Part shown: one piece after another, positions 7,566 through 64,000 of the stretch | How the letters are laid out: each line of letters starts with the position of its first letter | Position numbering within the stretch: the first letter of the stretch is position 1 | NCBI GenBank assembly: GCA_020348445.1 | Contig: CP070751.1 | Coordinates: forward strand, 3,681,002 to 3,745,001 | Direction of reading: 5' to 3' | Source of the DNA: Thermoplasmata archaeon | Lineage (GTDB): Archaea; Thermoplasmatota; Thermoplasmata; GCA-020350865 | DNA length: 64,000 bases | The notes under the pieces: model-generated | Database searches by the model: none | What the model was told of the DNA's origin: nothing | What the model saw: only the letters and a program-made list of their open reading frames with translations | Program-made: the position numbers and the translations under genes

Positions 7566-8909
7566 ATGGTACTCGAAGGTTTGGGCGACTCACTGAAAAC
7601 AACACTAAGAAAGATCGCAAACGCTCCACATATAGATAAAGAACTCATAAAGTCCGTGGTAAAGGACATCCAGAGGGCGCTGTTACAGGCTGATGTAAAT
7701 GTTCAGCTCGTTTTGGGCTTGACAAAGGAAGTGGAGAAAAGAGCACTTACAGAACGCCCGCCCGCTGGCATGAGCTCAAGGGAGCATGTGATCAGGATCA
7801 TCTACGAGGAATTGGTTAATATCCTAGGGGAGACAAAGGAAGTTCCCCTTAAAAAACAGATCATACTCATGGTTGGATTGTACGGCCAGGGAAAGACAAC
7901 CACAGCAGGAAAGCTTTCCAAATACTTCCAAAAAAAGGGCCTCAAGCCAGCTCTTCTTGCAGGAGACACTCACAGACCTGCAGCTTACGATCAGCTCAAA
8001 CAGATCGCGGATTTAGTTAGCGTTCCTTTTTATGGTGAACCAAAGGCAAAAAAAGCGGTAAAAGTCGTGAAAAACGGATTAAAAGAACTTTCTGACAATG
8101 ATGTAATCATCGTCGACACATCAGGAAGACATTCCCTCGAGGATGATTTGATAGCCGAGATAAAGAGCATTGGAAAGGTTACAAAGCCCACAGAAGTTCT
8201 TTTGGTGTTGGATGCGGCTGTGGGGCAACAAGCAGGGCCTCAGGCAAAGGCCTTTCACGAGGCAGTTAAAATAACAGGTGTTGTGCTTACAAAGTTGGAT
8301 GGCACAGCCAAGGGCGGGGGTGCGCTGAGCGCAGTTTCTGAAACCGAGGCTCCAATTGTCTTCATAGGGACAGGGGAGCATATAAACGACCTGGAGAAGT
8401 TCGAGCCTCCAAGGTTCATATCACGCCTTCTGGGAATGGGCGATATACAGTCACTTTTGGAAAAAGCCGAGGAGGTTGTTGACAAGGAAAGGGCTGAGGA
8501 GACCGCAAGGAAGATGCTATCTGGTAAATTCACTTTGATGGAGATGCGGGAGCAGTTGGACATGGTATCTGGGATGGGGCCTTTGAAGAAAGTGATGAGC
8601 ATGCTTCCTTTCATGCCCGGTGTTTCTGACAAAATCTCGGATATGGAGATGTACCAAACCCAGGATAGAATGCAGAAATTCAAGGTCATCATGGACAGTA
8701 TGACAGAAGAGGAAATGCTAAATCCAAAGCTAATCAAATCCCAGAGGATAACAAGGATAGCCAGGGGCTCAGGATGCGAGCCCAAGGATGTCAAGGAGCT
8801 TCTCAAGTACTACAACCAGACCAGAAAGATGATCAAGGGTTTTTCATCCAACAGAAAGATGAGGAAGGCGCTTATGAAGCAGCTCAAGTTCGGTGATATT
8901 GGGATGTAG
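7566..8909 (+). CDS. srp54: Signal recognition particle protein SRP54
   Basis: ALLQADVN, GLYGQGKTTT, DTSGRH, TKLDGTAKGGGALS, Met-rich M domain with RIARGSG. Confidence 0.97.
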   Translation: MVLEGLGDSLKTTLRKIANAPHIDKELIKSVVKDIQRALLQADVNVQLVLGLTKEVEKRALTERPPAGMSSREHVIRIIYEELVNILGETKEVPLKKQIILMVGLYGQGKTTTAGKLSKYFQKKGLKPALLAGDTHRPAAYDQLKQIADLVSVPFYGEPKAKKAVKVVKNGLKELSDNDVIIVDTSGRHSLEDDLIAEIKSIGKVTKPTEVLLVLDAAVGQQAGPQAKAFHEAVKITGVVLTKLDGTAKGGGALSAVSETEAPIVFIGTGEHINDLEKFEPPRFISRLLGMGDIQSLLEKAEEVVDKERAEETARKMLSGKFTLMEMREQLDMVSGMGPLKKVMSMLPFMPGVSDKISDMEMYQTQDRMQKFKVIMDSMTEEEMLNPKLIKSQRITRIARGSGCEPKDVKELLKYYNQTRKMIKGFSSNRKMRKALMKQLKFGDIGM

Positions 8910-49709: not shown

Positions 49710-49842
49710 CGGCAGGGTATCTTCTCGGGTGGTAAAAAGGATTTTGGGAGGGCGATAATAATATAAGTGGATAGAGCAATTGTCAGATGAACCAAGACCA
49801 AAGGTTATAATCTGAAATATACAAAATCGGGAGAATCATTAT

Positions 49843-50355
49843 ATGGATGAGGAAAGGAAGTTAGGTTTAATTCCCCAGGTAAGAATACCAGGAGCGTTGG
49901 GAGTTAATATTTATGCAATCCTTATAACGACGAGAAGACTTCTTTTTATTCGAACCTCTAAAGGATACGGATTTATTTTAGGCGGTGCAGTTGGAGCTGC
50001 TATCGGTTCATATTATGGTGATAAAGGGACAAGGCCATTCACTGATCCGGCAATTCTTCGGGATATCGACATAAACACTCTAAAGGAAGAAAAAGGCAAC
50101 AAGGACATATTGATAGATAATATTACAAAGGTAAAGTTAAAAAAAGGACTGGCAGCAAATAAGCTCTCTATTTATGGCCTGAAGAAGAACAAGAAGAAGT
50201 TATTGTTGGAAGGGTATTTGGTACCCCCCTCAGGTTACACCAAAGGTTATAAGGAAGAGGGTCTTGATTCAAAAGAAATAAGTCTCAGATATATCCAGGA
50301 AACTGAAAGTATTTTTCAAACGGTATTATTGGATCGAATTGAAAGGAATTATTAA
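49843..50355 (+). CDS. Hypothetical protein
   Basis: 170-aa ORF with GGGAGA SD and a Gly-rich hydrophobic segment. Confidence 0.65.
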   Translation: MDEERKLGLIPQVRIPGALGVNIYAILITTRRLLFIRTSKGYGFILGGAVGAAIGSYYGDKGTRPFTDPAILRDIDINTLKEEKGNKDILIDNITKVKLKKGLAANKLSIYGLKKNKKKLLLEGYLVPPSGYTKGYKEEGLDSKEISLRYIQETESIFQTVLLDRIERNY

Positions 50356-50503
50356 TTCATACATTGGGAGTATGCTCAAAAGCGTGAAGTATAAGGGATA
50401 CAAATGGAGGAATATTCTCTGGGAATAAAAAGTGCTTTGGAGGGAACCTAAGCGATAATATTATATTTGACGATAAAGTTAATCATTCAAGTGAAGGGTG
50501 CTA

Positions 50504-50583
50504 CTTAGAAAATGCATATCGCTGGTTTGCCATCGCCATTTCCGAGGCCTGCGTCCGTTTAACAGTAAAAGGAGGAGATTGTC
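50504..50583 (+). repeat. Structured intergenic element, copy A (right module only)
   Basis: CTTAGAAA...CGCCATTTCCGAGGCCTGCGTCCGT...AGGAGGAGATTGTC. Confidence 0.85.
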
Positions 50584-50591
50584 GATTTTTT

Positions 50592-52085
50592 TTATTTTAC
50601 AGGGTCAATCGCCCTTATCCCATCGCTGTATCCCTCGAACTTTGTTCCATCTGTTAATTCTCCTGTAACCTTTAAATTGTAAGTTCCAGGTGACAGCATA
50701 TCCTCCACTTCGCTTCTATCGAATTTGACCATGAGTGTATCGCCTTGGATGTCACCCCATTCAGCTGGGATTGTATCTTCTAGTATCACAGTGCTGATAT
50801 CTATATCGTTGACATCATATGAGCTGTTCATTGTAATATAGCATGCAATCCATCTACCTTTGCTTTTTAAATTAAAGGTATTGGGATTTATATCCACTCC
50901 AGCAGAGATTGATGGAAAGGGGAGTAATATCTGTTTAAAGTAAATCTCATGATTACCATCTCTATAATCCGCCCAGACAACATGAACCATGTTTTCATTA
51001 ACTACGATATCCGGCGAAACGGAAGTCTCAGGGGCAACCGTAAGTCTTGTGTCAACACTCCATGTATTGCCTCTATCAAAACTGCTTTTGAAGTAAATTT
51101 CAAGACTCCCTCCCTTATCCCGGTCATCCTCCCATACTATATAGATATTATCGTTCTCTGCAGATATTGCCGGATCAAAAATATTGTGAGTAGAATTCGA
51201 GAGTTTAATATTTTTAACCCATGTATTCCCATTATCTTCACTATAGCTAAAATAAACCTGTCTTTTAGACTCTTTATGACCATAAACAACATAGATGTAA
51301 TCGTTATTATGAGCAATATCAACATAATAATTACTATTCGTTGGTGTACTAGTGATGTTAATATCCTTTTCCCACGTTACACCGTTATCTCTGCTTTTTA
51401 TATAAAAGATATCCGGAATCAAGTGTCCTGCTCTTTCGGTATCTCTCCACACTATATGTACATTATTTTCATTGACGGCTATAGCTGTCTCAATTGATAC
51501 ACTTCTGTTAGGTATTAGTATTTCGGGAACGCTCCAAGTAAAGCCGTTATCATTGCTATGAATGTAAGAAAGTTTATGATTTGAGTCTGAGTAGACAACA
51601 TGCAAGTTGTTCTCATACACGCCGATATCCCAATTAGGAAAATTGTCGTACATTATTGGCGTTATTGCGATCTCAGGGCTCCAGGTATTTCCATTATCTG
51701 TACTGCGAATATAATGTATTCTTTTATCATCGCTTTCACACCATATTACATGAATGTTACTTCCATTGACTGCTATTTTTGGATGTAATGCTTTTGTTGA
51801 AGGACCACTTACCAAGCAGATAGGAGGATTCCATGTATTTCCGCGGTCGCGGCTGTTTATGTACCATAAAAACATTTCGAGATATCCTGCACCTTCATTG
51901 TCGATATACGCCACATGGATGTTGTTGCCTTCTACTGCAATAGCTGGAAATAAGGAGCGTCCATCATTAAATGTCAGTCTAATATCCTCGCTCCAATCAC
52001 CTATATCAGTGGATGCTGTGGTTATTGAGATACTACTTAGCCCAATAGCAAACACAAACATAATGCTTAATAATTTTTTTCTCAT
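50592..52085 (-). CDS. Secreted BNR/Asp-box (sialidase-like) propeller protein
   Basis: Signal peptide MRKKLLSIMF; repeated SxDxGxTW boxes; likely ATG 52085 (the track ORF starts at 52130). Confidence 0.85.
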   Translation of the reverse strand: MRKKLLSIMFVFAIGLSSISITTASTDIGDWSEDIRLTFNDGRSLFPAIAVEGNNIHVAYIDNEGAGYLEMFLWYINSRDRGNTWNPPICLVSGPSTKALHPKIAVNGSNIHVIWCESDDKRIHYIRSTDNGNTWSPEIAITPIMYDNFPNWDIGVYENNLHVVYSDSNHKLSYIHSNDNGFTWSVPEILIPNRSVSIETAIAVNENNVHIVWRDTERAGHLIPDIFYIKSRDNGVTWEKDINITSTPTNSNYYVDIAHNNDYIYVVYGHKESKRQVYFSYSEDNGNTWVKNIKLSNSTHNIFDPAISAENDNIYIVWEDDRDKGGSLEIYFKSSFDRGNTWSVDTRLTVAPETSVSPDIVVNENMVHVVWADYRDGNHEIYFKQILLPFPSISAGVDINPNTFNLKSKGRWIACYITMNSSYDVNDIDISTVILEDTIPAEWGDIQGDTLMVKFDRSEVEDMLSPGTYNLKVTGELTDGTKFEGYSDGIRAIDPVK

Positions 52086-52148
52086 ATCTACCGCCCTCCC
52101 TCTCCAAAGAATAAATGCATCTGGAAGCATATAAAACCTTCTCTAAAA

Positions 52149-52307
52149 GACAATCCCCTCCTTCAAAAAAACGTACCGAGGAAGAAGAAGGCAAGAGCAA
52201 AGGACGCAGGCCTTCATGGAAGTTAGATTTGTGAGCAATCGGTACACTGAGGGAGTGGCAAAATCTTTATCCCCGAAGAGAGATAATGGTTTTAGGGATG
52301 GGGTTTA
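52149..52307 (+). repeat. Structured intergenic element, copy B (left and middle modules; right module absent)
   Basis: GACAATCCCCTCCTT...GGACGCAGGCCTT...AAAATCTTTATC...GATAATGGTTTTAGGGATGGGGTTTA. Confidence 0.85.
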
Positions 52308-52411
52308 ACGGCGACTCCCGAATATAAGCGAGGCTTAAGGTATGATCGTAAGTAAAAAAATACAGACTGCCAATAACAATTAAATCTAAAGAAAATACCC
52401 GGTGAAGAAAA

Positions 52412-53674
52412 ATGAAAGAGAAAGCTATTTCTGTGCTAGTTATTTGGTTGGTTTTGGTTGGGACATTTTTATCTAGCTTTTCTATTTCGTCCATCAGTGG
52501 CCAAGGGGATGAACACGTTGAAACAAGAATCGGAACCGAGATCCAAATATCCAACGCCTCCGGAGATCAAAGTTACCCAGCAATTTATGGCAACCTAATC
52601 GTGTGGGAAGACTATAGAAATTGGAGCTCACGCTATGATATTTATATGTATGATCTTGACACTGGTGAAGAAACTCGGATAACCATCAATGATTATGATC
52701 AAACTGCACCTGCCATCCACGGCAATCGAATTGTCTGGGAAGATAACAGGAATGATAATATGGATATATATATGTATGATTTAAGCACAGGAACAGAAAC
52801 ACCAATATGTCCAAATCCCACAAATCAATATGATCCGGCCATATATGACGACAAAATAGTCTGGAGCTCATTCGGCGGCATTTACTTATACAATCTGACG
52901 AACCAGACCGAGATAAGGATAAATGATGACTATGCACTCTTTGGCAAGAATCCAGATATCCATGGAGATCGAATTGTCTGGCAGGAAAAAAAGAATGAAA
53001 ATTATGATATATATCTCTATGATTTGAGTACAGGTAGCGAAACGCAGATAACAACTGGTCACATAAATTATACTTATCCTGCGATTTATGGCAACTATAT
53101 CATATACACATCTAGTGTAAATAGTGGTGAATTTCTTATATATTTATTTGACCTAACAACCGGATTAGAGAAACAGATAGCCAATGCGATTACGCATGAT
53201 TTACGGCCTGCAATTTATGATAACCTCATCGTTTGGGAAGATGCTGAGAATCATACGGGGGCCTTCATTCGAGATGTTTACCTGTACAACATTATCACGG
53301 ACACTGAGATACGGGTAAGCAACAACACCGCAAACCAGATTAAACCAGATATCTATGGCAATAGAATCGTTTGGATGGATGATAGAAACGGGGGGAGTTG
53401 GGACATATATATATGTGAAATTTCCGTAATGATTAATGGGGAGGAGGATGGTAGAGGAGATGATAAAGACGATATTTTTCCCCTCCTCTACAGCCTGATT
53501 GCCATCATCATAACGATCGTGTTCATTATATTTCTCGTCTTCATAATCAAAGCTAAAAAGAAATCCACTATTCAAAAGGAAGATGAAGAGAAATGGACGA
53601 GATGTCCAAAGTGTAAAGCACGCCTTAAAAAGAAGAATCTTAAAAGCCATATCAAAAAAGTTCATAAAAAATAA
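52412..53674 (+). CDS. Surface beta-propeller repeat protein (TolB-like/methanogen type) with TM and cytoplasmic C2H2 zinc finger
   Basis: Q..PAIYGN.IVWED.RN...DIYMYDL repeats; TM; CPKC...LKSHIKKVH. Confidence 0.85.
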   Translation: MKEKAISVLVIWLVLVGTFLSSFSISSISGQGDEHVETRIGTEIQISNASGDQSYPAIYGNLIVWEDYRNWSSRYDIYMYDLDTGEETRITINDYDQTAPAIHGNRIVWEDNRNDNMDIYMYDLSTGTETPICPNPTNQYDPAIYDDKIVWSSFGGIYLYNLTNQTEIRINDDYALFGKNPDIHGDRIVWQEKKNENYDIYLYDLSTGSETQITTGHINYTYPAIYGNYIIYTSSVNSGEFLIYLFDLTTGLEKQIANAITHDLRPAIYDNLIVWEDAENHTGAFIRDVYLYNIITDTEIRVSNNTANQIKPDIYGNRIVWMDDRNGGSWDIYICEISVMINGEEDGRGDDKDDIFPLLYSLIAIIITIVFIIFLVFIIKAKKKSTIQKEDEEKWTRCPKCKARLKKKNLKSHIKKVHKK

Positions 53675-53699
53675 AATGATAACAGATCACGAGCTACAG

Positions 53700-54004
53700 T
53701 GCGCCGAGCATAAGGGGAACGGCTTCGTTTTCGAATTTTGAAGAAATTTGAAAACTGAGATGGGCGAACGAAGCGAGCACATCGAAGGCGCAGGCAACCA
53801 AACGGTGTGGGGGGAAGAAGGTAAGAACAAAGGGCGCAGGCCTCCATGAAGCAAGGAGTAATCTGAGAGCACAGAATGGCAAAACCTTTATCCCTTTAGG
53901 AAGATAATGGTTTTAGGGATGGGGCTTAGAAATGGCATGTGAACAATAACCCAACGTCATTTCCGAGGCCTGCACCCGTTTACCAATAAAATGAGGTGAT
54001 TCTT
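53700..54004 (+). repeat. Structured intergenic element, copy C (left TIR lost, right TIR degenerate)
   Basis: GCCGAGCATAAGGGG...GGGCGCAGGCCTC...GGGGCTTAGAAATGGC...GAGGCCTGCACCC. Confidence 0.85.
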
Positions 54005-54117
54005 GGGACTAAATTCAGAATTAGTAAATTAATAGCCTTTAAGCCTATACTTTTTTTTATAGCAATTAATATATAATCATACTGTCTATCTATGAAGAGG
54101 TTAATAGGAGGATAAAA

Positions 54118-54624
54118 ATGAAAATTCCCGTGTTTGTTTCTTGTCCAACAACCTTAAATGATAATCAAGAGAGTGCAAGAAAAATTATTATTCATGAACT
54201 TGATGAATTAGGATTAGAACCCAGAGCATTGGGAAGAACGGATTATCCTGCAGATTTCCCCTTGAAGGAAGTTTTAGTTATTGCAAATCATTGTTCGGGA
54301 GGAGTTGTTTTAGGATTTGAACAATTTTCAACAGATAAGGGGATATGGAAAAGGGGGATGAAAGAAGAAAGAGTTCAGAACGATTTAATTGCATTTTCGA
54401 CTCCATGGAATCACCTTGAAGCAGGTATTATGTTTGCTTTAAGCCTTCCGCTTATTGTTTTTAAAGAAAATAGTATTTCTGGAGGAGTTTTCGATAGAGG
54501 TGTTACAGATGTATTTATCCATAAAATGCCCATGGGGGAATTATCCAAACAAAGTAAAAATGCACTAAGGGAAGTGTTTCTAAATTGGCAAAGGAAAGTA
54601 AGGGCACACTATTATGGAGATTAA
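54118..54624 (+). CDS. TIR-like/nucleoside-deoxyribosyltransferase-fold protein
   Basis: VFVSCP first strand, PWNHLEAG putative catalytic Glu, LPLIVFKE; fold inferred by eye. Confidence 0.55.
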   Translation: MKIPVFVSCPTTLNDNQESARKIIIHELDELGLEPRALGRTDYPADFPLKEVLVIANHCSGGVVLGFEQFSTDKGIWKRGMKEERVQNDLIAFSTPWNHLEAGIMFALSLPLIVFKENSISGGVFDRGVTDVFIHKMPMGELSKQSKNALREVFLNWQRKVRAHYYGD

Positions 54625-54947
54625 ATAACTTATGCTATAATGGTTGTATTCTTTCTTTTGGATAATAACTTGCCTGGTTTTTTATTCCTGTTCTTTCCGG
54701 TTTTGAATTTCATGGTTTTATCGTTTGGAGCAAGTTTTTAGTGTATTACTTTCTATGGAATAGAGAGTTTTACTTGAAATATGCGATTTTTATATGAAAG
54801 ACGAAGTTGAGGAGAGGATAATGCAAAAGAAGTTTTACAATCAGAGGAATGCAACAAGACGACGGGATGTGAAGGCAAACAATATTGTTAGTAAAATATA
54901 TATGGTCATTTATATGTAATGATCTTGATTATTTGGAGATGATATAT

Positions 54948-55946
54948 ATGAAACTAATTGAAATAGAGATAATGAATAAAGAAAGTATCGTTAATGTTGA
55001 AGCGGATTATATCATGTTGAAAAACGCCGAGGAAGGATTGTTTGGTCCAGAATTAAATGTTAATAAAGTTTCAGGAGGATTATTATCTCTATTAAATAAG
55101 CCAGAAGAAACAAAAATTGGAGCTGTAAATATTATAACTAATGTAAGTGGGACTTCTGCAAAAGGAGTTATTCTCATTGGTATAGGTCTAGGATTCCAGT
55201 TTCGCTATAAAGCTTTAGGTATTATGTGCAAAAAAATGATAGAAACGGTATTTAAAATATCTCCACCTGTAAAAGTTATTGCAACTGTTAATCATGGTGT
55301 AGGTTTTGGTCTTGATCGAAGAGAGGTTTTTCTTACACAATTAGTTAGTTTTAAATCCGCTCTTGAAAAAACTGATAAAACACTTGAAATTGAAAAAATA
55401 AGATTCAATGAAACAAAAGAGATGAATGTAAATTTTTTAAAAGTTTATCTTAAGGAACTTTCCGATTTAGATGAAAGCCCTATTATCAAAAAAGAAGATA
55501 AATATTTTTTACAACTAGGAAAGAGTTCAGAAATATTAACGCAATTTGTTATGAGAGTGGAAAAAGGTGATTATGTATTTGTGGCTATGCCTTTTGCAGA
55601 GGAATTTGAAAATGTTTATGATTTTGGAATAAGATTGCCAATTATTGAAAAACAATTTCAACCTATTCGAACCGATAAAAAATATTTTGTGGGTTCAGTT
55701 TTAAGAGAAATACAAAATAGAATTCAAAAGAGTATATTAGTAATAGCGGATATAAGTACTCTTAACCCAAATGTAATGTTTGAATTAGGGTATGCCCAAG
55801 GCTGTGGGAAACCAACAATAATAATATGTCGCACAGGAGAAAAACTTCCATTTAATGTTTCTGGAATGAACATAATATTTTATAATCCACATTTATTAAG
55901 AGAATTAAATGATTCTCTATTAAAAGCACTATCAGCAATAATGTAA
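54948..55946 (+). CDS. Macro-like N-terminal domain fused to an NDT/TIR-like C-terminal domain
   Basis: VEADYIMLK and VIATVNHGVGFGLD (macro-like); FVAMPF...VIADISTLNPNVMFELGYA.G.GKP (NDT-like); likely ATG 54948 after GGAGA. Confidence 0.65.
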   Translation: MKLIEIEIMNKESIVNVEADYIMLKNAEEGLFGPELNVNKVSGGLLSLLNKPEETKIGAVNIITNVSGTSAKGVILIGIGLGFQFRYKALGIMCKKMIETVFKISPPVKVIATVNHGVGFGLDRREVFLTQLVSFKSALEKTDKTLEIEKIRFNETKEMNVNFLKVYLKELSDLDESPIIKKEDKYFLQLGKSSEILTQFVMRVEKGDYVFVAMPFAEEFENVYDFGIRLPIIEKQFQPIRTDKKYFVGSVLREIQNRIQKSILVIADISTLNPNVMFELGYAQGCGKPTIIICRTGEKLPFNVSGMNIIFYNPHLLRELNDSLLKALSAIM

Positions 55947-55974
55947 AATTTAATAGAGAATAATTTTATTTTAA

Positions 55975-56330
55975 GACACTCCCCTCCTTAATAAAGAGCG
56001 CGCCGAATATAAGGGGGACGGCTTTACCACAGGCACGCAAACCGAGACCAAAGGTCGAGGAAATGTGCAGTGCGAAGCACTGTATGTGGGGAAGCCACCC
56101 TTTTTCCACCGGCGCTTTTTATAATAGGGCCGATGGGGAGGATGAAGGTAAGAGCAAAGGACGCAGGCCTCCTATAAGCAAGGAGCAATCCAAGAGTGCG
56201 GAGTGGCAAAACCTTTATCTTAGCAAGAGATAATGGTTTTAGGGGTGGGGCTTAGAAATGGCATGAGGACAATATCCCAACGCCATTTCCGAGGACTGCG
56301 TCCGTCATAAAGAAAAAGGAGGGGATTGTC
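55975..56330 (+). repeat. Structured intergenic element, copy D (complete, 356 bp)
   Basis: TIRs GACACTCCCCTCCTT / AAGGAGGGGATTGTC; nested stems; CAGTGC-GAA-GCACTG hairpin. Confidence 0.9.
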
Positions 56331-56422
56331 GATAATAAATAATTTACATGTGTAATTATATAAAAATGCTTAAATCTCATCAAATTAATATAAGATAGGA
56401 TTTTAAATTTAGGAGGAAGAAA

Positions 56423-57145
56423 ATGGCAGAGAATAATAAAACTTCAAACGGCGGGACCAGAATTGTCCTTGCATATGTGACTATTATCTTTTCGATAGCG
56501 GCTATCACTACTTTAGCTTTGATTGCTATAGTAAGTGACCAAGCGAACACCATGACCGTTTTCAACATTATGTTGCCGATGTTCGCAACCTGGGTGGGTA
56601 CCATATTGGCATTCTATTTTGGTAGGGAAAACTTTGAATCGGCAAATGAACAAGTTCAGAAAATGGTCGACCGAATTACTCCCGAGCAACGCGCAAAGGC
56701 ACCTGTCACCTCGATTATGAGGAGATTGAATATAACAACCCATTACCAGATTCCAAAAGGAAAAGACGATAAAGATGTAAAGCTCTCGGAATTGAAAGAC
56801 AAACTCATGCCTATAAATATTACTCGCCTACCTATTATCTATTCTGATAAAAAACCGAAGTATATGATCCATGAAAGTAGCATCGATAAATATATTTCCA
56901 CTGGTGGTAAGCAAGATGACACTCTTGAGAAGTTCGTTACCACACAGAAGAAAGAAGGATTTGAGTTCGGTTTGAACAAAGGCTTTATTGTGGTCTCGGA
57001 AGAAACCTCACTTTCAGTAGCAAAGCGCAAAATGGAGGAAATCCCTCCCTGTCAAGACATTTTTATCACGAAAGAAGGAAGTCCAGACGAACCACTTACG
57101 GGATGGATTTCAAATATACGAATGGGGAAATATCTCGAACCGTAA
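56423..57145 (+). CDS. Two-TM protein with a CBS-like cytoplasmic domain
   Basis: Two N-terminal hydrophobic helices (...TWVGTILAFYFGRENF); PVTSIM and ITRLPII segments are CBS-like. Confidence 0.6.
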   Translation: MAENNKTSNGGTRIVLAYVTIIFSIAAITTLALIAIVSDQANTMTVFNIMLPMFATWVGTILAFYFGRENFESANEQVQKMVDRITPEQRAKAPVTSIMRRLNITTHYQIPKGKDDKDVKLSELKDKLMPINITRLPIIYSDKKPKYMIHESSIDKYISTGGKQDDTLEKFVTTQKKEGFEFGLNKGFIVVSEETSLSVAKRKMEEIPPCQDIFITKEGSPDEPLTGWISNIRMGKYLEP

Positions 57146-57340
57146 AAAAACAAAGGAAAATGAGGATAGATAAAATAAGGAAATATTTAGGTGACTCGGC
57201 CCAAACTCGGTGCTTCGCACCGACCCTAACGGGTATGTATAACTAAAGGTTATCTGACTCACCTTAAACATATATTGTAAAATAGCAATTAATTTATATC
57301 CATTTATCTGATATATAAGAAACATATTAGGAGGGAAAAT

Positions 57341-57526
57341 ATGAAAATTCCTGTGTTTGTATCATGCCCAACTATGTTGAATAATAATCAAGAGAACGCA
57401 AGAGAAATAATTATTCATGAACTTGACGAATTAGGATTAGAGCCAAGGGCATTGGGTAGAACTGATTACCCAACAGATTTCCCTCTGATATCGCTGGTTA
57501 CGATAGGATTGAATATCAAAGTATAG
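57341..57526 (+). pseudogene. Truncated duplicate of 54118-54624 (similarity ends after about 48 codons)
   Basis: MKIPVFVSCP...LGLEPRALGRTDYP.DFPL nearly identical, then unrelated sequence. Confidence 0.85.
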
Positions 57527-57699
57527 TTGAGTTTAAAGAGTTGCTAGATTTAAAATTTAAAAAATTTGTAAAAGAATTTATAAGGGTATAGAATATTATC
57601 GGTAATTGGATTTCGGATAGCAATCATATTTCCTTGAGGTAAATTAATATGTTTATTGCAATTGCATAATCATATATTAGCCTTATCAGAGGAAGACAT

Positions 57700-58746
57700 A
57701 TGGTAAAAGATTTAAAAACTTGTTTCATATTAATGCCCTTCTCAGGTACACACTCTTGTACGGAAGATGAGTGGGAGCATATATTCAAAAACATCTTTAA
57801 ACCAACATTTTAGGAATTAGGTTATAAATGTTGGAGGTCAGAGGCTACAACTGGAAATGTATTGAAGGATATACTAAAGGATATTTTAAATTGCACAATT
57901 GTAGTACCGGATCTAACGGACCGGAATCCAAATGTCTTTTATGAATTGGGAGTACGACATTCATTGCGAAATAAAACAATAATTCTTGCCCAAAATAGAT
58001 CAGATATACCTTTTGACCTACAATCATATGCAAACCACAAATATCGGTGGAAAACGAAAAAAGACCTCGATAGTTTTAAAAAAAGAATGAAATCTTTAGT
58101 TAATTATATTGAAGCTCATCCTGATCGCCCTGATAACCCTGTGGGTGACTTTTTAGGAACAAAAGAAGGTATTGAAGATACTATTGGTTCTATATCAACG
58201 TTTATTGATCGTTTTCAAAATCAAATGAACATTTATAAAAAAGAGAGTGACATGCTAAAATCAGATATTGAAGAATTAAAAAATGTTGTATCGACAATTC
58301 CTGCTCCTAAAAAAGACCTTCAGCTTAGGCACCGGTTTGAAGGTGTGTGGTATAGTGAGGAAACGGACAACACATTAGTAATAAAAGTGGTAAACAATAA
58401 AATAAGAGGGTGCTATAATTATGGACATAATAAATTAATTGGACATTATAGAAATACTGCTATTGTAGGTGGTATTTTACGATATGAATTCGAGTGGATA
58501 GATAAGTCTTATGCCGGAAAAGGATTTGAAAAATTAAGTAAAGATGGTAAAAAAATGTCTGGTGGGTGGTGGTTTTCCTATATGAACCTCAAATATGATA
58601 TTGCTGAGAAACATTATGAATCTGTAACAACACCTGAGGATCTAATAATAACAAAAAGTGAATTTAAAAGGAGGAGAAGAAAAACTCCAAAATGGGCAGA
58701 AGTATATTTTAAAAATATTCAAAAAAGTCCATCATATTATGATTGA
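57700..58746 (+). pseudogene. NDT-like domain + coiled coil + beta-barrel protein with an in-frame TAG at 57811-57813
   Basis: ATG 57700 gives MVKDLKTCFILMPFS...FKPTF*ELG in frame with track ORF 57862 (DLTDRNPNVFYELGVRH). Confidence 0.75.
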
Positions 58747-58809
58747 TAAGGAAGTCGATGATACGCTCTGATTTTCCTCTCATCTACTTATAAAGCGCAT
58801 CAATATAAA

Positions 58810-59203
58810 GACAATCCTCTCCTAATATAAAGCGTGCCGAGCATAAGGGGGACGGCTTCGTTTTCGAATTTTGAAGAAATTTGAAAACTAAGTGGGCGAG
58901 CGAAGCGAGACCACGGAGGCGCAGGCACAAGACGGTCTGGGGAGGAAGAAGGTAAGTGCAAAGGACGCAGGCCTCCGTGGAAGCTCCGGCTGAGGGAGCC
59001 CGGTTTTCCTGGGCGAACGAGGGTTGCGACGAGAGTGGGCATTTAAATCTTCAGTGATGTATAATTATGGAGCCAGGAGCAATCGGAAATGACGGTAGTG
59101 GCAAAACCTTTATCCCCGTAGAGAGATAATGGTTTTAGGGGCGAACGAGCAGGCGAATCAAACAATAGCGTAAAAAGCCAGCGCAGTGAGCGGACGGGGC
59201 TTA
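58810..59203 (+). repeat. Structured intergenic element, copy E (left TIR plus extended middle, ends at GGGGCTTA)
   Basis: GACAATCCTCTCCT...GCGAGCGAAGCGAG...GGACGCAGGCCTC...GATAATGGTTTTAGGGG...CGGGGCTTA. Confidence 0.88.
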
Positions 59204-59311
59204 AAGGCGAGGGGGCATGTATTTATCGAAGGAGTTTGGCCTCGGTTCTAAAGTATAAAATATGTGGAAAAACATAAATATGTTAAACAACATATATAGA
59301 TTGGTGAGAAT

Positions 59312-59542
59312 ATGCCAAGTATGACGCTATCTATCCCAGAAGATCTCCACTCATTCATTAAAAGACATAATGAAATTCGCTGGAGCGAGATTGCACGGAG
59401 AGCTATGTGGGATTATGCAAAACGATTAGAGATATTGGATCGTATTGCAGAAAAAAGTAAACTTACTGAGAAAGATGTCGAAGAATTAGACAGAATGATA
59501 AAGAAAGCAGTTCACAAACATTATAGGAAGTATACCAAATGA
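59312..59542 (+). CDS. Ribbon-helix-helix antitoxin (VapB-like)
   Basis: MTLSIPEDL...IRWSEIARRAM; ATGA overlap with the PIN gene. Confidence 0.85.
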   Translation: MPSMTLSIPEDLHSFIKRHNEIRWSEIARRAMWDYAKRLEILDRIAEKSKLTEKDVEELDRMIKKAVHKHYRKYTK

Positions 59543-59949
59543 GATTCGTAGTGGACACTAACATAATATTTTCTGCACTAATAAAGGATTCAATATCTAG
59601 GAAGATTTTATTATCAACAAAATTTGAGTTTTTTACACCCGAGTACATTTTTGTAGAAATCCAAAATCACTCAGATGAAATTATCAGGAGGTGTGATCTT
59701 GATACTGAGGGTTTTGAACTCATGGTAGATTCATTAATGACTGATGTCATGGTAGTCTCTATCGATGATTTTAAAAAATATATACCAAAGGCATATCATA
59801 TAATGAAAGATATTGATGAATATGATACCTCATTTTTAGCACTTGGATTAATGATAGACGGAGAAGGGATATGGAGTAATGATGCCCATTTTGACAAACA
59901 GAATGCAATTAAGGTGTGGAAAACAAAGGACATGATAAAGCTTCTTTAA
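59539..59949 (+). CDS. PIN-domain toxin (VapC-like)
   Basis: VVDTNIIFSAL, EIQNH, DEYDTSFLAL, IWSNDAHF acidic quartet. Confidence 0.92.
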   Translation: MRFVVDTNIIFSALIKDSISRKILLSTKFEFFTPEYIFVEIQNHSDEIIRRCDLDTEGFELMVDSLMTDVMVVSIDDFKKYIPKAYHIMKDIDEYDTSFLALGLMIDGEGIWSNDAHFDKQNAIKVWKTKDMIKLL

Positions 59950-61270
59950 ATCATTTATAATATCCTGAGCAGGTAGGGGATGGCCAGCACAAGGATATAA
60001 TGGCTAGGGGAGGTATAGGAAGGGCCAAACTCCGCTTGAAATCTAGATGCACCCTCGCCTTCGATGCGTGAGCTATTTATAGCGACGCAAGCGACTGTGG
60101 AAGATGGTATGTTTAAATCCGCCTTCGAGATAATGTGCTCGGAGGTGCAGAAGTATGCTATACGCAGGATTGGATGTACATAAAAACTTTTGTCAGGCCA
60201 TAGTAATGACAAAAGGAGGTAAAGTTGTAAAAGAAGATAAGATAGGAACGGAGCAGGAAGATATCGAAGAATTCTTTTATGGGTTGAAGAATGTAAGAAT
60301 TGCGTTTGAGGCATCGATGTATTATGAGTATGTCTACGAAATACTCAATGGATTGGGATATGAAGTATCTCTATCCCATTCATTAAAGACAAGGCTGATA
60401 GCCGAGTCAAGGATAAAGACAGATAAGATCGATGCAAAGGCACTAGCAGATTTGTTACGAGCAGATCCATTGCCAACATCTTATATCCCGCCTGAAGATA
60501 TTCGTAAAGTGAGACATTTAGTCCGTCATAGGATATTCTTAGGAAGACACCGGACCAAATTGAAGAACCATATATATTCAGAGTTGAACCATAGAAACTT
60601 GAAGTTCTGCGGTCCTGATGTGTTCACCAGGGCTGGTATGAAATGGTTGCAGGGATTAAATATCCCAGCAATTAATTCCTACTTGGTAATTTTAGATGCG
60701 GTATTAAATGAAGTAAAATCTGTAGAGTTGAAGATAAAGATTGAAGGTATGAAATATGATGAAGTAAGGTTGTTGAGCACTATACCGGGAATAGGAGTAT
60801 ATTCTGCATTGATAATCCTTTCAGAGATAGGAGACATAAATCGGTTCAGCTCTGAAGAGAAATTGTACTCCTATGCTGGAATGATACCTAGAGTCCATCA
60901 ATCTGGCGATAGTAGTTATCAAGGTAGAATCACGAAGGAGGGTTCTAAACACCTTAGATGGATCTTAGTAGAAGCACTCCGAATCCATATTCAATGTGCA
61001 CCAGATAGTAAGGTCACTCGTTATTATTATCGTCTCAAAAAGAAGAAACCAGGTAATGTTGCTACTATGGCAGGAGCAAGAAAGCTTCTTCAAGTGATTT
61101 ATCATATGTTGAAAAATCAGGATGAATATCGAGGTTAGATGTGCAGACCTTGAGGCGGAGCTTGCGGCATTGCGACCGCCCGTGGAAGATTAAGGTGCAC
61201 ATCTAACCAAGGACGAAGCAGCCATATTGCGGCACTATGACCGCGAATAGGAGCATGTCATAAGTGATAT
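59950..61270 (+). mobile_element. IS110-family insertion sequence (ends approximate)
   Basis: Transposase flanked by GC-richer, hairpin-rich non-coding ends; weak 9/11 subterminal IR ATCATTTATAA (59950) / TCATAAGTGAT (61258). Confidence 0.7.
60155..61138 (+). CDS. IS110-family DEDD recombinase/transposase
   Basis: GLDVHK, FEAS, KTDKIDA (DEDD); IPGIG; HQSG serine; KEGSKHLRWILVEA. Confidence 0.95.
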   Translation: MLYAGLDVHKNFCQAIVMTKGGKVVKEDKIGTEQEDIEEFFYGLKNVRIAFEASMYYEYVYEILNGLGYEVSLSHSLKTRLIAESRIKTDKIDAKALADLLRADPLPTSYIPPEDIRKVRHLVRHRIFLGRHRTKLKNHIYSELNHRNLKFCGPDVFTRAGMKWLQGLNIPAINSYLVILDAVLNEVKSVELKIKIEGMKYDEVRLLSTIPGIGVYSALIILSEIGDINRFSSEEKLYSYAGMIPRVHQSGDSSYQGRITKEGSKHLRWILVEALRIHIQCAPDSKVTRYYYRLKKKKPGNVATMAGARKLLQVIYHMLKNQDEYRG

Positions 61271-61319
61271 ATACAAACGAAAATAATAAGGTATCGTAAA
61301 TTCGGGCGGATTTCACATA

Positions 61320-61597
61320 GAAGCTCCGCCCGAGAGAGTCGACGGGGCGAGCGAGGGGTTGCGACCGGCGAATATATTTGGCGACACAGGGAGCAATTCG
61401 AGTGTTCGAGGTCAGATTTTATGATCGACGCCTCGATATTCCGGACGGAGTGGCCGAAGTGGTTATATGTGATTAATGTCATAGCGGAGAGGGATACAAG
61501 CAAAGTCCCAGTTTCTGGGGCTTAGAAATGGCATGTGGACATGTCCCAACGCCATTTCCGAGGCCTACGTCCGTCTTAAAAAAAAGGAGGGGATTGT
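61320..61597 (+). repeat. Structured intergenic element, copy F (middle fragment 61320-61365 and right module 61517-61597)
   Basis: GAAGCTCCGCCCGAG...GGGTTGCGAC, then GGGGCTTAGAAATGGC...GAGGCCTACGTCC...AAGGAGGGATTGTC. Confidence 0.85.
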
Positions 61598-61676
61598 CAA
61601 AACGATTGAGTATTTCGATCTTAAACAAAATATAAATGATGATAGATTATATCTACTTCTTAAGAGCGTGAATTGA

Positions 61677-63383
61677 TTGATAAGAAATACTATTATTACA
61701 TTGACAGTAATGATGTTGTTAATTTTATTTCAAATTCGAGTAATAGCCGATGGAGAAAACGGTCAGGAAAGCTCTTGGTCGGATCCATTTCAACTATCAG
61801 GTCCTCAAACAAATTGCTATATACCGGCAATTGCCGTAAATAATAGTACGGTTCATGTAATTTATTCTCAGCGGAATTATACGGGAATTTATTACAAAAG
61901 AGGTTATAATAATGGTACTATTTGGGAAAATGAAAAATTATTAATAAATGTTACATCGGGAGAACCAGCTATTGCCGTATATAACAATAATGTTCATATT
62001 GTATGGTCAGATTTCAGAAATAATGAAGAAATGAATATTTCAAAAGGATGGGAAATATATTATAAACGAAGTACAGATGGAGGAAATACTTGGTCAGATG
62101 ACATGAGATTAAGTAATGCCGATAATAATATCTCCGGAACCCCTAATATTGTGTGTGAAGGAGATATTGTTCATGTTGTTTGGGGTGATGCAAGAGATAG
62201 TGTTGGGACTATGTATTATGGATATGGCGGGGCGATATATTATAAAAAAAGTGTTGATAATGGCAACAATTGGACAAACGATACAAGAATAAGTGATACA
62301 AAAGTAAAAGCATTCGTCCCTTCTATAGCAATTTCAGGAAATTATGTTTATGTCGCTTGGAATGATAAAAGAGATTATGTAAATGATGAAATATATTTTA
62401 AAAGAAGTATCGATCAAGGTGAAACATGGGAAAATGATACAAGATTAACTTTCTCAGAAAATATTACATCTTATATTCCTGATATTGCTGCAATGAATGA
62501 ATCAGTATATATTACCTGGGAAGAGGATAATTATTATGATGGTGTGTCGTTCATTAAAAGTGAAAATTATGGTCAGACATGGAGTAATATAACCCCTTTA
62601 ACACCTGGAATACATTTTGTAGGAGTACCAAAGATAGGTATTAATGAAAATTATATTCATATTGCATTTGAAAGAGGTGATTCCCTTGGGGGAGATTTAT
62701 TTTATTTAATAAGTAAGGATTTTGGAGAAAATTGGGAAAATATTAGGAAAATTACTTTTAATGAATTGGTATGGAGTTATGTTAATATTTATGTTATGGG
62801 AAATCTATTACATTTCGTATGGACAGATCCGGGTGAAATAAATTCAATTTTTTATATGAATAATTCTAATTTTGGATTAGGTTTCGTAGGAATAGATGTT
62901 GATGGTGATTGGGTAGAAAACAATAATGATGCGTTCCCAGAAGATCCTGCAGCTAGTATAGATTCAGATGGTGATGGATATCCTGACGAATGGAATCCTT
63001 GGAAGACTAGCGAAGACTCAACAACAGGCTTAAATCTTGATGTATTTCCAAATAATGCAGATGAATGGAATGATACAGATAATGATAGTTTTGGAGATAA
63101 TTATGACGCATTTCCAACAAATCCAAATGAGTGGAAAGATACCGATAATGACAGTTACGGAGACAATGAAGACGTATTTCCGAATGACCCAAATGAATGG
63201 ATTGATTCCGATGGTGATGGTATCGGTGATAATACAGATGCATATCCCAACGATCCTTCAAAATGGGAAAGAGAAGAGTCAAAAGAAGATAATTTTCTCT
63301 TGATTTTATTGATTATTTCAATTTTTATTATAATTTTTATAGTCCTAATATATAAAGTCATTAATGGAAGAAGAAAAAGCTAA
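61677..63383 (+). CDS. Surface BNR/Asp-box propeller protein with thrombospondin type-3-like Ca-binding repeats and C-terminal TM
   Basis: SxDxGxTW boxes; DSDGDGYPD/DTDNDSFGDNYDAFP repeats; TM; paralogous to 50592-52085. Confidence 0.87.
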   Translation: MIRNTIITLTVMMLLILFQIRVIADGENGQESSWSDPFQLSGPQTNCYIPAIAVNNSTVHVIYSQRNYTGIYYKRGYNNGTIWENEKLLINVTSGEPAIAVYNNNVHIVWSDFRNNEEMNISKGWEIYYKRSTDGGNTWSDDMRLSNADNNISGTPNIVCEGDIVHVVWGDARDSVGTMYYGYGGAIYYKKSVDNGNNWTNDTRISDTKVKAFVPSIAISGNYVYVAWNDKRDYVNDEIYFKRSIDQGETWENDTRLTFSENITSYIPDIAAMNESVYITWEEDNYYDGVSFIKSENYGQTWSNITPLTPGIHFVGVPKIGINENYIHIAFERGDSLGGDLFYLISKDFGENWENIRKITFNELVWSYVNIYVMGNLLHFVWTDPGEINSIFYMNNSNFGLGFVGIDVDGDWVENNNDAFPEDPAASIDSDGDGYPDEWNPWKTSEDSTTGLNLDVFPNNADEWNDTDNDSFGDNYDAFPTNPNEWKDTDNDSYGDNEDVFPNDPNEWIDSDGDGIGDNTDAYPNDPSKWEREESKEDNFLLILLIISIFIIIFIVLIYKVINGRRKS

Positions 63384-63405
63384 CCATTTGTTAGTTGAGC
63401 AAAAA

Positions 63406-63747
63406 GACAATCCCCTCCTATTAAGAAAGCGTGCCGAGCATAAGGGGGACGGCTTCGTTTTCGGATTTCGAAGAAATTTGAAAACTAAGTGGGCGAGCGA
63501 AGCGAGACCACGCAGGCGCAGGCACAAGACGGTCTGGGGAGGAAGAAGGTAAGAGCAAAGGACGCAGGCCTCCGTGGAAGCTCCGCCCGAGATAGCCCGT
63601 TTTATTGGGCGAACGAGCAGGTGAAGAAAGCAATAGCAAAATGAGCCAGCGCAGTGAGCGAACGGGGCTTAGAAACGGCATGAGGACAATATCCCAACGA
63701 CATTTCCGAGGCCTGCGTCCGTCTAAAAGAAAATGGAGGGGAATGTC
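63406..63747 (+). repeat. Structured intergenic element, copy G (complete, 342 bp)
   Basis: TIRs GACAATCCCCTCC / GGAGGGGAATGTC; GGACGCAGGCCTC pairs perfectly with GAGGCCTGCGTCC. Confidence 0.9.
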
Positions 63748-63853: not shown

Positions 63854-64000
63854 ATGAAATTTCCAACAGACCGTGCAGGTAAGTATAAGAAGCATAAGAA
63901 TGGTTATAAGACATTCGTTCCTAAATCCCTGCCGCCCAATCCACCTCTTGAGTTGGATGGTCAATTATTGAGATTATTATCAAAAGCCGACCAGGCACTT
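63854..64000 (+). CDS. Fic-family protein, N-terminus (runs off the window)
   Basis: GAGGA SD; MKFPTDRAG...GYKTFVPKSLPPNPPLELDGQLLRLLSKADQAL matches the Fic_N pattern; the catalytic motif lies outside the window. Confidence 0.7.
   Translation, partial: MKFPTDRAGKYKKHKNGYKTFVPKSLPPNPPLELDGQLLRLLSKADQAL

Follow-up and report, generated by a model that had tools for sequence, protein, structure and literature searches.

A probable site-specific array of gene cassettes in a Thermoplasmata archaeon and its association with a candidate Y1 (HUH) transposase

This analysis concerns a 64,000-nt stretch of DNA from a Thermoplasmata archaeon (the window; contig CP070751.1 of assembly GCA_020348445.1, positions 3,681,002 to 3,745,001), in which a row of unrelated genes is separated by related, folded, non-coding sequences. 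The row is very probably a site-specific array of gene cassettes. The metagenome-assembled genome (MAG; G000) to which the window belongs was deposited as one contig of 5.16 Mb and consists of 353 contigs strung together via runs of 100 N. The window opens a contig of 141 kb, and the whole of its array lies inside that contig. Housekeeping genes flank the island, with GatE, GlnA and an aminotransferase on one side and hypC/A/D and a [NiFe] hydrogenase on the other; the presence of GatE identifies the organism as archaeal. An upstream open reading frame (ORF) of 368 aa was considered as an integrase and rejected, as it is the aminotransferase. Homology to the aminotransferase flank of sister genomes ends near 49780. 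The head of the island (49781–50507, + strand) contains an ORF of 170 aa (49843–50355) that matched no family, and a left flank whose end, ..GCTACTTA, forms the first joint of the array.

Seven repeat copies, A to G (at 50504, 52149, 53700, 55975, 58810, 61320 and 63406, all on the + strand), had been recognised in a sequence-only reading of the window and are present as described. They share blocks of 35–180 nt with 62–95% identity. The 13-nt inverted ends were also placed correctly (5' form at 52149, 55975, 58810 and 63406; 3' form ending at 50583, 56331, 61598 and 63747), and the spacing to cargo codons holds, with copies beginning 29 nt past the stop at 55946 and 23 nt past that at 63383 and ending 92–108 nt ahead of the next start. 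No target-site duplication is evident at the copies, again as first reported. A hidden Markov model of the copies gave 48 nhmmer matches in the assembly, far beyond chance, 43 of them on six contigs that are or end in arrays. All 18 matches on the window's contig lie on the + strand. Several of the G000 array contigs consist of array from end to end and are broken at repeats.

Other parts of that first description have to be revised. Instead of a fixed element of ~350 bp, the copies are modular and range from about 80 to 460 nt. Copy A is a cassette head only, and copies B and E lack a 3' end because the head of a different cassette class comes next. Copy F is not truncated at its 5' side but has its 5' part at 60039–60103, separated from the rest by a 1.2-kb insertion sequence (IS) of the IS110/IS1111 type at 60104–61323. 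Nor does the array end at 63747: it extends to about the window equivalent of 81–82 kb (read from locus L001), with copies that are progressively more decayed past the window. The row comprises about 20 recognisable joints or cassettes over about 30 kb, within an island of 36 kb. Finally, the supposed GAC/GTC-ended site is not the site of joining. The 13-bp inverted repeats sit within the heads and tails of a single class of cassettes, and the joint lies 3' of GGGGCTTA, in the middle of what had been called the element.

The position of this joint follows from the homology itself. When the copies that retain the conserved core are aligned across five genomes of the genus (G000–G004), homology breaks abruptly past GGGGCTTA at 46 joints. 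The conserved core consists of a hairpin, GCAAAACCTTTATC..GATAATGGTTTTAG, followed by GGGATGGGGCTTA. An exact match to the 22-nt tail of this core retrieved 27 further joints on 21 independent metagenome contigs, and these show 23 distinct right sides. Every joint follows (G/A)CTTA, a rule read from sequence and not from witnessed insertions; within the window they fall after 50507, 52307, 53928, 56254, 59203, 61524 and 63671. To the right of a joint stands one of a few head classes (four or more), then unique sequence. As homology breaks after GGGGCTTA, the element of the first description is the tail of one cassette plus the head of the next. Two nested cases illustrate this. In the window, a class II cassette with a VapB-like gene and a PIN toxin follows the GGGGCTTA of copy E, and the class I head appears only after the tail of that cassette, copy F. 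In G002, a class II cassette likewise lies between the two halves of a class I element. A cassette is accordingly a short conserved head, one to three cargo genes and a folded tail of 150–400 nt that always ends in GGGGCTTA, and at least some cassettes have a promoter-like box of their own. Neither end of a cassette, the head or ..GGGGCTTA, repeats the other in inverted form, and the ends are not flanked by a duplication. Arrays of this type are better searched for by the break in homology than by inverted repeats.

The heads fall into recognisable classes. Class I heads begin GAAATGGCAT and comprise a hairpin, one strand of a 13-bp stem and then the 3' inverted end; class II heads begin A(A)GGCGAGG, class III heads ACGGCGAC and class IV heads AGGAGGC. 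Read in these units, the window holds six complete cassettes and the start of a seventh, on the + strand except for the cargo of the first. Cassette 1 has a class I head (copy A, 50508–50583) with its hairpin, the 3' strand of the long-range stem and the 3' inverted end at 50571–50583, a BNR-repeat surface protein on the minus strand (50592–52130; Pfam BNR_2) and a tail (copy B, 52149–52307) with the 5' inverted end at 52149–52161 and the core hairpin, ending GGGGTTTA at 52300–52307. Cassette 2 (52308–53928) starts with the class III head ACGGCGAC, carries a beta-propeller gene (52412–53674) and closes with copy C, which ends GGGGCTTA at 53921–53928. Cassette 3 (53929–56254) has a class I head to about 54013, an ORF at 54118–54624, a TIR-like gene at 54885–55946 and a tail from 55975 (copy D). 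In cassette 4 (56255–59203), a class I head with its 3' inverted end at 56319–56331 is followed by ORFs at 56423–57145, 57341–57526 and 57862–58746, the last of them TIR-like, and by a tail from 58810 (copy E). Cassette 5 (59204–61524) begins with the class II head AAGGCGAGG and carries the VapB-like gene (59312–59542) and the PIN toxin (59539–59949); its tail, copy F, is split by the IS into 60062–60103 and 61324–61524, and a private inverted repeat at 60039–60061 pairs with the head. Cassette 6 (61525–63671) comprises a class I head (3' inverted end at 61586–61598), a BNR protein (61677–63383) and a tail from 63406 (copy G) ending GGGGCTTA at 63664–63671. Cassette 7 starts at 63672 with a class I head (3' inverted end at 63735–63747) and a TATA-like box, and its Fic gene runs from 63855 past the window edge at 64000.

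The tails and heads fold. In the core hairpin of the tail 93.7% of cells are paired, as against 40–55% when the partner strand is slid, and four pairs show compensatory change with 36 cells changed on both sides, which none of 500 shuffles reaches. These pairs were counted on a structure that we named ourselves; RNAalifold on the core alignment missed the hairpin. One tail variant has a different stem sequence and retains the pairing. Another variant of the tail hairpin, seen at L005:15306-15565 and L001:3000-3122, has an insertion of ~75 nt in the apical loop and retains the stem and the GGGGCTTA end. In the class I head hairpin, the outer stem of 8 bp is conserved: 149 of 160 cells are Watson–Crick pairs, and in several copies G-C replaces a C-G pair. 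The apex of this hairpin is variable, shifts register and is self-complementary by eye, not by count. Heads of classes II–IV have no local hairpin and pair instead with the tail of their own cassette. In several cassettes the pairing joins the head to the beginning of that tail through bases private to the cassette: an 11-bp pair surrounds a toxin-antitoxin (TA) cassette shared between genomes, and 14 of 15 bases pair in cassette 5 of the window. When private repeats are ranked, the cognate pair comes top for five short class II cassettes, is clear also for the shared TA cassette and cassette 5, and is generic for class I. For the long-range stem and the 13-bp ends, pairing across the tail (between neighbouring cassettes) gave 0.8 mean mismatches and pairing across the gene (within one cassette) 1.0, with too few variants to separate the two.

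A covarying hairpin that sits between a stop codon and the next promoter could also be a structured RNA of the accessory genes, such as a 3' untranslated region, terminator, insulator or small RNA, with the look of an array being secondary. Both strands fold better than shuffles (z of -3.7 and -4.8), which would suit an RNA. However, Rfam gave no match at the gathering threshold nor at E up to 1, and G:U pairs are not in excess over A:C pairs (11 vs 11). The stretch turns up, whole or in part, in three public runs of two studies, seen as Logan contigs; these runs are labelled sediment metagenomes, and no RNA run contains it. As an RNA would also leave the sharp joint, the shared cassettes, the empty site and the master site described below unexplained, this explanation is very unlikely.

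Cassettes recur in different surroundings. One TA cassette is common to contig C1 of G002, contig C128 of G004 and another contig of G000, with 85–91% nucleotide identity. In all three, similarity begins precisely at CTT|AAAGGCGAGG, and the sequences to the left of it are unrelated: two are differing core variants, and the third has only ..ACTT in common with them. The window's Fic cassette is present again in G002 (C17) and a GH114 cassette of its array on another G000 contig, and the first cassette behind the Y1 gene introduced below has a 77% relative in ORF254. The locus itself varies too. In the sister genome G001 the aminotransferase is followed directly by hypC-hypA, an empty site, whereas in G000 about 36 kb separate the aminotransferase from hypC, and G002 (C54), G003 (C86) and G004 (C57) hold arrays with different cargo at the same locus. 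Within the array the better-kept cassettes lie near its head and the decayed ones distally; this gradient fits insertion near the array head, for which it is weak evidence. Tails have been lost by deletion from a GH114 cassette and, in G004, from the TA cassette.

These observations bear on both proposals of the sequence-only reading. Its suggestion of a gene-capture platform stands as far as the co-oriented array, the sharp joint, the same cassette in different contexts, the empty site and the other cargo of other species are concerned, and falls only in the GAC/GTC ends it assigned to the site; of the outcomes named there as refuting it, scattered copies and an invariant cargo are not seen. 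Its other suggestion, a family of miniature inverted-repeat transposable elements (MITEs) or REPINs, is not supported: the copies lack a duplication and a transposase whose ends match, they are clustered and co-oriented, and the candidate Y1 enzyme does not score as a REP-associated tyrosine transposase (RAYT). A broader version of that idea would do without dedicated machinery altogether, in that a MITE- or REPIN-like repeat spread into a hotspot and cargo was swapped by homologous recombination. The tails share 50–300 nt of homology, sufficient for such recombination, deletions between repeat parts are seen in the GH114 cassette and in the TA cassette of G004, and the 13-bp inverted ends look MITE-like. 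Yet the breakpoint is base-precise even for left sides with no more than four to five bases in common, homology does not stop at the inverted ends, neither duplication nor matching transposase accompanies the repeats, and the copies are co-oriented (18 of 18 on the window contig) and clustered (43 of 48 on array contigs). Recombination of this kind is therefore an improbable source of the array, if less so than a structured RNA. It should be noted that MITEs differ in further ways from the present repeats, whose 13-bp repeats are internal to homology blocks and whose exact motif occurs almost only inside arrays. The repeats of REP/RAYT systems (REP, repetitive extragenic palindromic) are palindromes of 20–40 nt, scattered between genes in both orientations and without cargo, whereas those described here are long, clustered and co-oriented; what the two systems share is a Y1 gene that is present once and looks domesticated, accompanied by many structured non-coding repeats.

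Among platforms that stockpile and shuffle single genes, integrons are to our knowledge the only ones well understood, and every known integron relies on the same tyrosine-recombinase family. The likeness of the present system to integrons, above all sedentary chromosomal ones, and to clusters of attC sites lacking integron-integrases (CALINs) is considerable: a row of unrelated cassettes that all point one way at a fixed place in the chromosome, a folded site at the 3' side, one sharp joint per cassette, a master site beside the candidate enzyme gene, cargo rich in TA and defence genes, and an IS110/IS1111-type IS lodged in a site. As in a CALIN, the window array has no enzyme gene of its own. 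Integron attC sites measure 55–140 nt and contain R''/L''-L'/R' boxes and RYYYAAC...GTTRRRY cores. The sites described here are 150–400 nt, lack R/L boxes, have no AAC/GTT cores at the homology boundary, and are joined 3' of CTTA; further, at least some cassettes bring their own promoter-like box, and the candidate enzyme is a HUH Y1 transposase and not an IntI-type tyrosine recombinase. For PF00589, the whole assembly yields only two short fragments (frames of 98 and 63 aa at 1864225 and 2412539), neither near an array and neither an IntI. The archaeal integrons published by Ghaly et al. 2022, by comparison, carry canonical IntI and attC (PMC9668308). A classical integron or CALIN with divergent attC sites, which the layout of gene plus folded site, the cargo and the fixed locus might suggest, is thus extremely improbable. 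The system works like an integron, yet fails both of its defining parts, IntI and attC, and no description of such a system was found in the literature searched.

The first reading proposed to look for a recombinase past the 64 kb of the window. None is encoded on the window's contig, and the best candidate, a Y1 gene, lies on another contig of the assembly. There, two genes at L003:7532-7876 (-) and 8049-8462 (+) (G000 4214531–4215461) form a divergent Y1 pair, whose products are called P0001 and P0002. P0001 is a full-length IS200 TnpA (127.9 bits on NF033573; 17.8 bits on the RAYT model against a cut-off of 80) that aligns to the TnpA of IS608 (2a6m; E 6e-26) and has the HVH form of the HUH motif and the C-terminal catalytic Tyr. 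P0002 is shorter; HVR stands where P0001 has its HUH motif, and the helix with the catalytic Tyr is missing. Judged by its sequence, it could be a regulatory or structural partner of P0001. The divergent pairing of a Y1 gene with a dead paralogue recurs in G001 and G003. Two identical, ordinary IS200 copies are also present in the assembly, with no array in their flanks; the nearest repeat match is weak and ~49 kb off.

Directly past the P0001 stop lies a structure of ~130 nt, here called the master site, which has a closing stem of 13 bp and ends GTACGTGACTTA; it forms a stem with bases just past the Y1 stop codon. Beyond it come a class III cassette head, a cargo gene, a tail and then the contig end. 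A conserved site of ~130 nt ending GTACGTGACTT lies downstream of Y1 in G000, G003, G002 and G004, and the sequences diverge beyond it. From the site (..GACTT) to the Y1 stop the distance is within about 150 nt in three genomes and about 1.1 kb in G002. Divergence in G003 sets in immediately past ..GACTT, and the site is found also on contig C168 of G004. On contig C138 of G002 an array follows the Y1-linked site, and a copy of the master site without Y1 heads the aminotransferase-side array of G004. The end of the first joint in the window resembles the ..ACTTA end of the master site, and by sequence this joint looks like a decayed master site. In other families of the class, Y1 homologues (45–52% identity) lie within 1–6 kb of repeat arrays at five of six loci examined. 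More distant Y1 paralogues (41–55% identity to P0001) occur in tandem inside arrays, on the opposite strand and in the manner of cargo (G002:C1 42473-43772 and 49956-51258; G002:C138 2961-3884; G003:C220 19-930). In the only genome sampled from another family of the same order (L064, G005:C300), GTACGTGACTT occurs twice on the minus strand, at about 5626 and 5856, 230 nt apart; the pair lies downstream of a Y1 orthologue (63% identity), the same sequence follows both, and the layout is unlike that of the genus.

Based on these features, it is somewhat more plausible than the reverse that cassettes have been moved as single-stranded DNA by an IS200/IS605-type Y1 transposase, and they may still move today. 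In such a process, the Y1 enzyme encoded elsewhere would bind the tail hairpin, cut after the CTTA that stands at a set distance on its 3' side, and rejoin the ends. The left joint and the end of the cassette would each be cut 12 nt 3' of a core hairpin, and a Y1 dimer seated on the two hairpins could make both cuts. Joining of the upstream CTTA to the next head would then leave the donor joint, and joining of the cassette's CTTA to the head of the same cassette would yield a circle, with head–tail pairing bringing the two cut sites together. A new cassette would join exactly 3' of CTTA, at the tail end of any earlier cassette or at a master site. Each insertion recreates the target, so the row would grow head to tail in one orientation. 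The polarity would be that of IS608, as would the chemistry of peel-and-paste. The larger proposal that a domesticated Y1 enzyme with its dead paralogue runs an integron-like capture system in Thermoplasmata, excising cassettes whose folded tail would derive from a right end and pasting them as single-stranded circles 3' of CTTA also in arrays that lack the enzyme, stands at roughly even chances.

The comparison with IS200/IS605 elements (IS608, ISDra2 and their derivatives without genes, the palindrome-associated transposable elements, PATEs) cuts both ways. As in that family, an intact Y1 HUH TnpA is present in the genome, though on a contig other than the window's; the units lack inverted ends and target duplication, insertion is 3' of a short fixed sequence, which in that family is a tetra- or pentanucleotide, the orientation is strictly single-strand-like, and a subterminal hairpin lies a fixed distance 5' of the right-end cut. 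On the other hand, the units described here carry ordinary cargo and no tnpA, and are thus non-autonomous; their target is the end of a sister unit, which gives one long array at one locus in place of scattered insertions; most heads have no left-end hairpin, and tails are far longer than the right end of IS608; and the Y1 gene has a catalytically dead paralogue as its partner.

Several points weigh against the Y1 proposal. The geometry differs from IS608 in that heads of classes II–IV have no left-end hairpin and both cuts would have to be read from hairpins 5' of the site, and no guide sequence that would pair with the CTTA cleavage site, as in IS608, was identified. No match to PF00589 or PF01797 occurs on the window's 141-kb contig, and the action of Y1 in trans on the window array is assumed. 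The link between Y1 and arrays is, at the level of sequence, an association only: every genome of the genus has both parts, and there is no negative control. The wobble pairs (G:T 11, A:C 11) favour neither strand. No excised circle or polymorphism was seen in the Logan contigs, whose joints are ambiguous; all of these (e.g. 50583 to 52150 and 59212 to 60055) are explicable by other repeat copies or by relatives, and nothing was drawn on excision or habitat from joints or coverage. Deletions have eroded the distal half of the array, much of which may be immobile now. A further concern is the assembly: at 5.16 Mb, G000 is well above the 2.3–3.7 Mb of its relatives, and the MAG could for this reason contain more than one strain.

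Some of these points would fit a site-specific array whose cassettes are moved by a different enzyme, be it a tyrosine recombinase of the Xer type or some unrecognised protein, with Y1 as no more than a frequent neighbour or a resident of the array. No recombinase adjoins the window array, the Y1 paralogue pairs inside the arrays of G002 and G003 resemble cargo, and the geometry of heads and tails is unlike that of IS608. The two short PF00589 fragments, neither near an array, speak against this, as does the master site (..GACTT), which lies downstream of Y1 in four genomes and stems with bases past the Y1 stop. Further, cassettes without duplication or inverted ends, inserted at a short fixed target, suit the chemistry of Y1. 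Another enzyme is hence unlikely, but it is the alternative to be taken most seriously.

If the Y1 proposal is true, the integron principle was invented a second time, independently and on HUH chemistry, and gene-cassette capture has evolved more than once. The system would help to explain the trade of defence and TA genes among uncultured archaea, and would widen the known roles of HUH enzymes. It would also offer a compact in vitro site (hairpin plus CTTA), possibly usable for single-strand DNA insertion tools.

The IS in the tail of cassette 5 is a feature of its own. It lies on the + strand right after GTGGAAG, with GAAG at both sides, and has a subterminal inverted repeat, AAATCCGCC/GGCGGATTT, a transposase gene at 60155–61138 (Pfam DEDD_Tnp_IS110 and Transposase_20) and a non-coding right end of 183 nt. 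It is present as a single copy in the assembly. The IS110-family gene was considered as the builder of the array and rejected, as it is single-copy, interrupts a tail and is found in no other array. IS1111-attC elements target integron attC sites, and the position of this IS in a cassette tail parallels theirs.

The cargo of the array is heterogeneous, with surface proteins of the BNR, WD40, NosD/PKD and fn3 types, two TIR-like effectors, TA pairs of PIN and ParE type, Fic, two GNATs, two radical SAM enzymes and GH114. Its GC content goes down to 0.29–0.32, against about 0.40–0.45 in the flanks. Cassettes 3 and 4 carry paralogous two-gene sets, in which a small ORF (54118–54624 and 57341–57526) precedes the TIR-like effector (54885–55946 and 57862–58746); the small ORF of cassette 4 is truncated and shares 83% nucleotide identity over 164 nt with its counterpart in cassette 3. 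Three cargo genes lie on the minus strand, the BNR gene at 50592–52130 and two others at L001:9009-10346 and L001:11986-13380 (BNR, WD40 and NosD beta-helix). They have ~300 nt at the 3' end and ~120 nt at the 5' end in common (77–84% nucleotide identity) and unrelated middles, and look like a surface-protein family with fixed termini and swapped cores. These genes sit 8 and 18 nt from the class I inverted ends, and relatives occur in G001 and G002.

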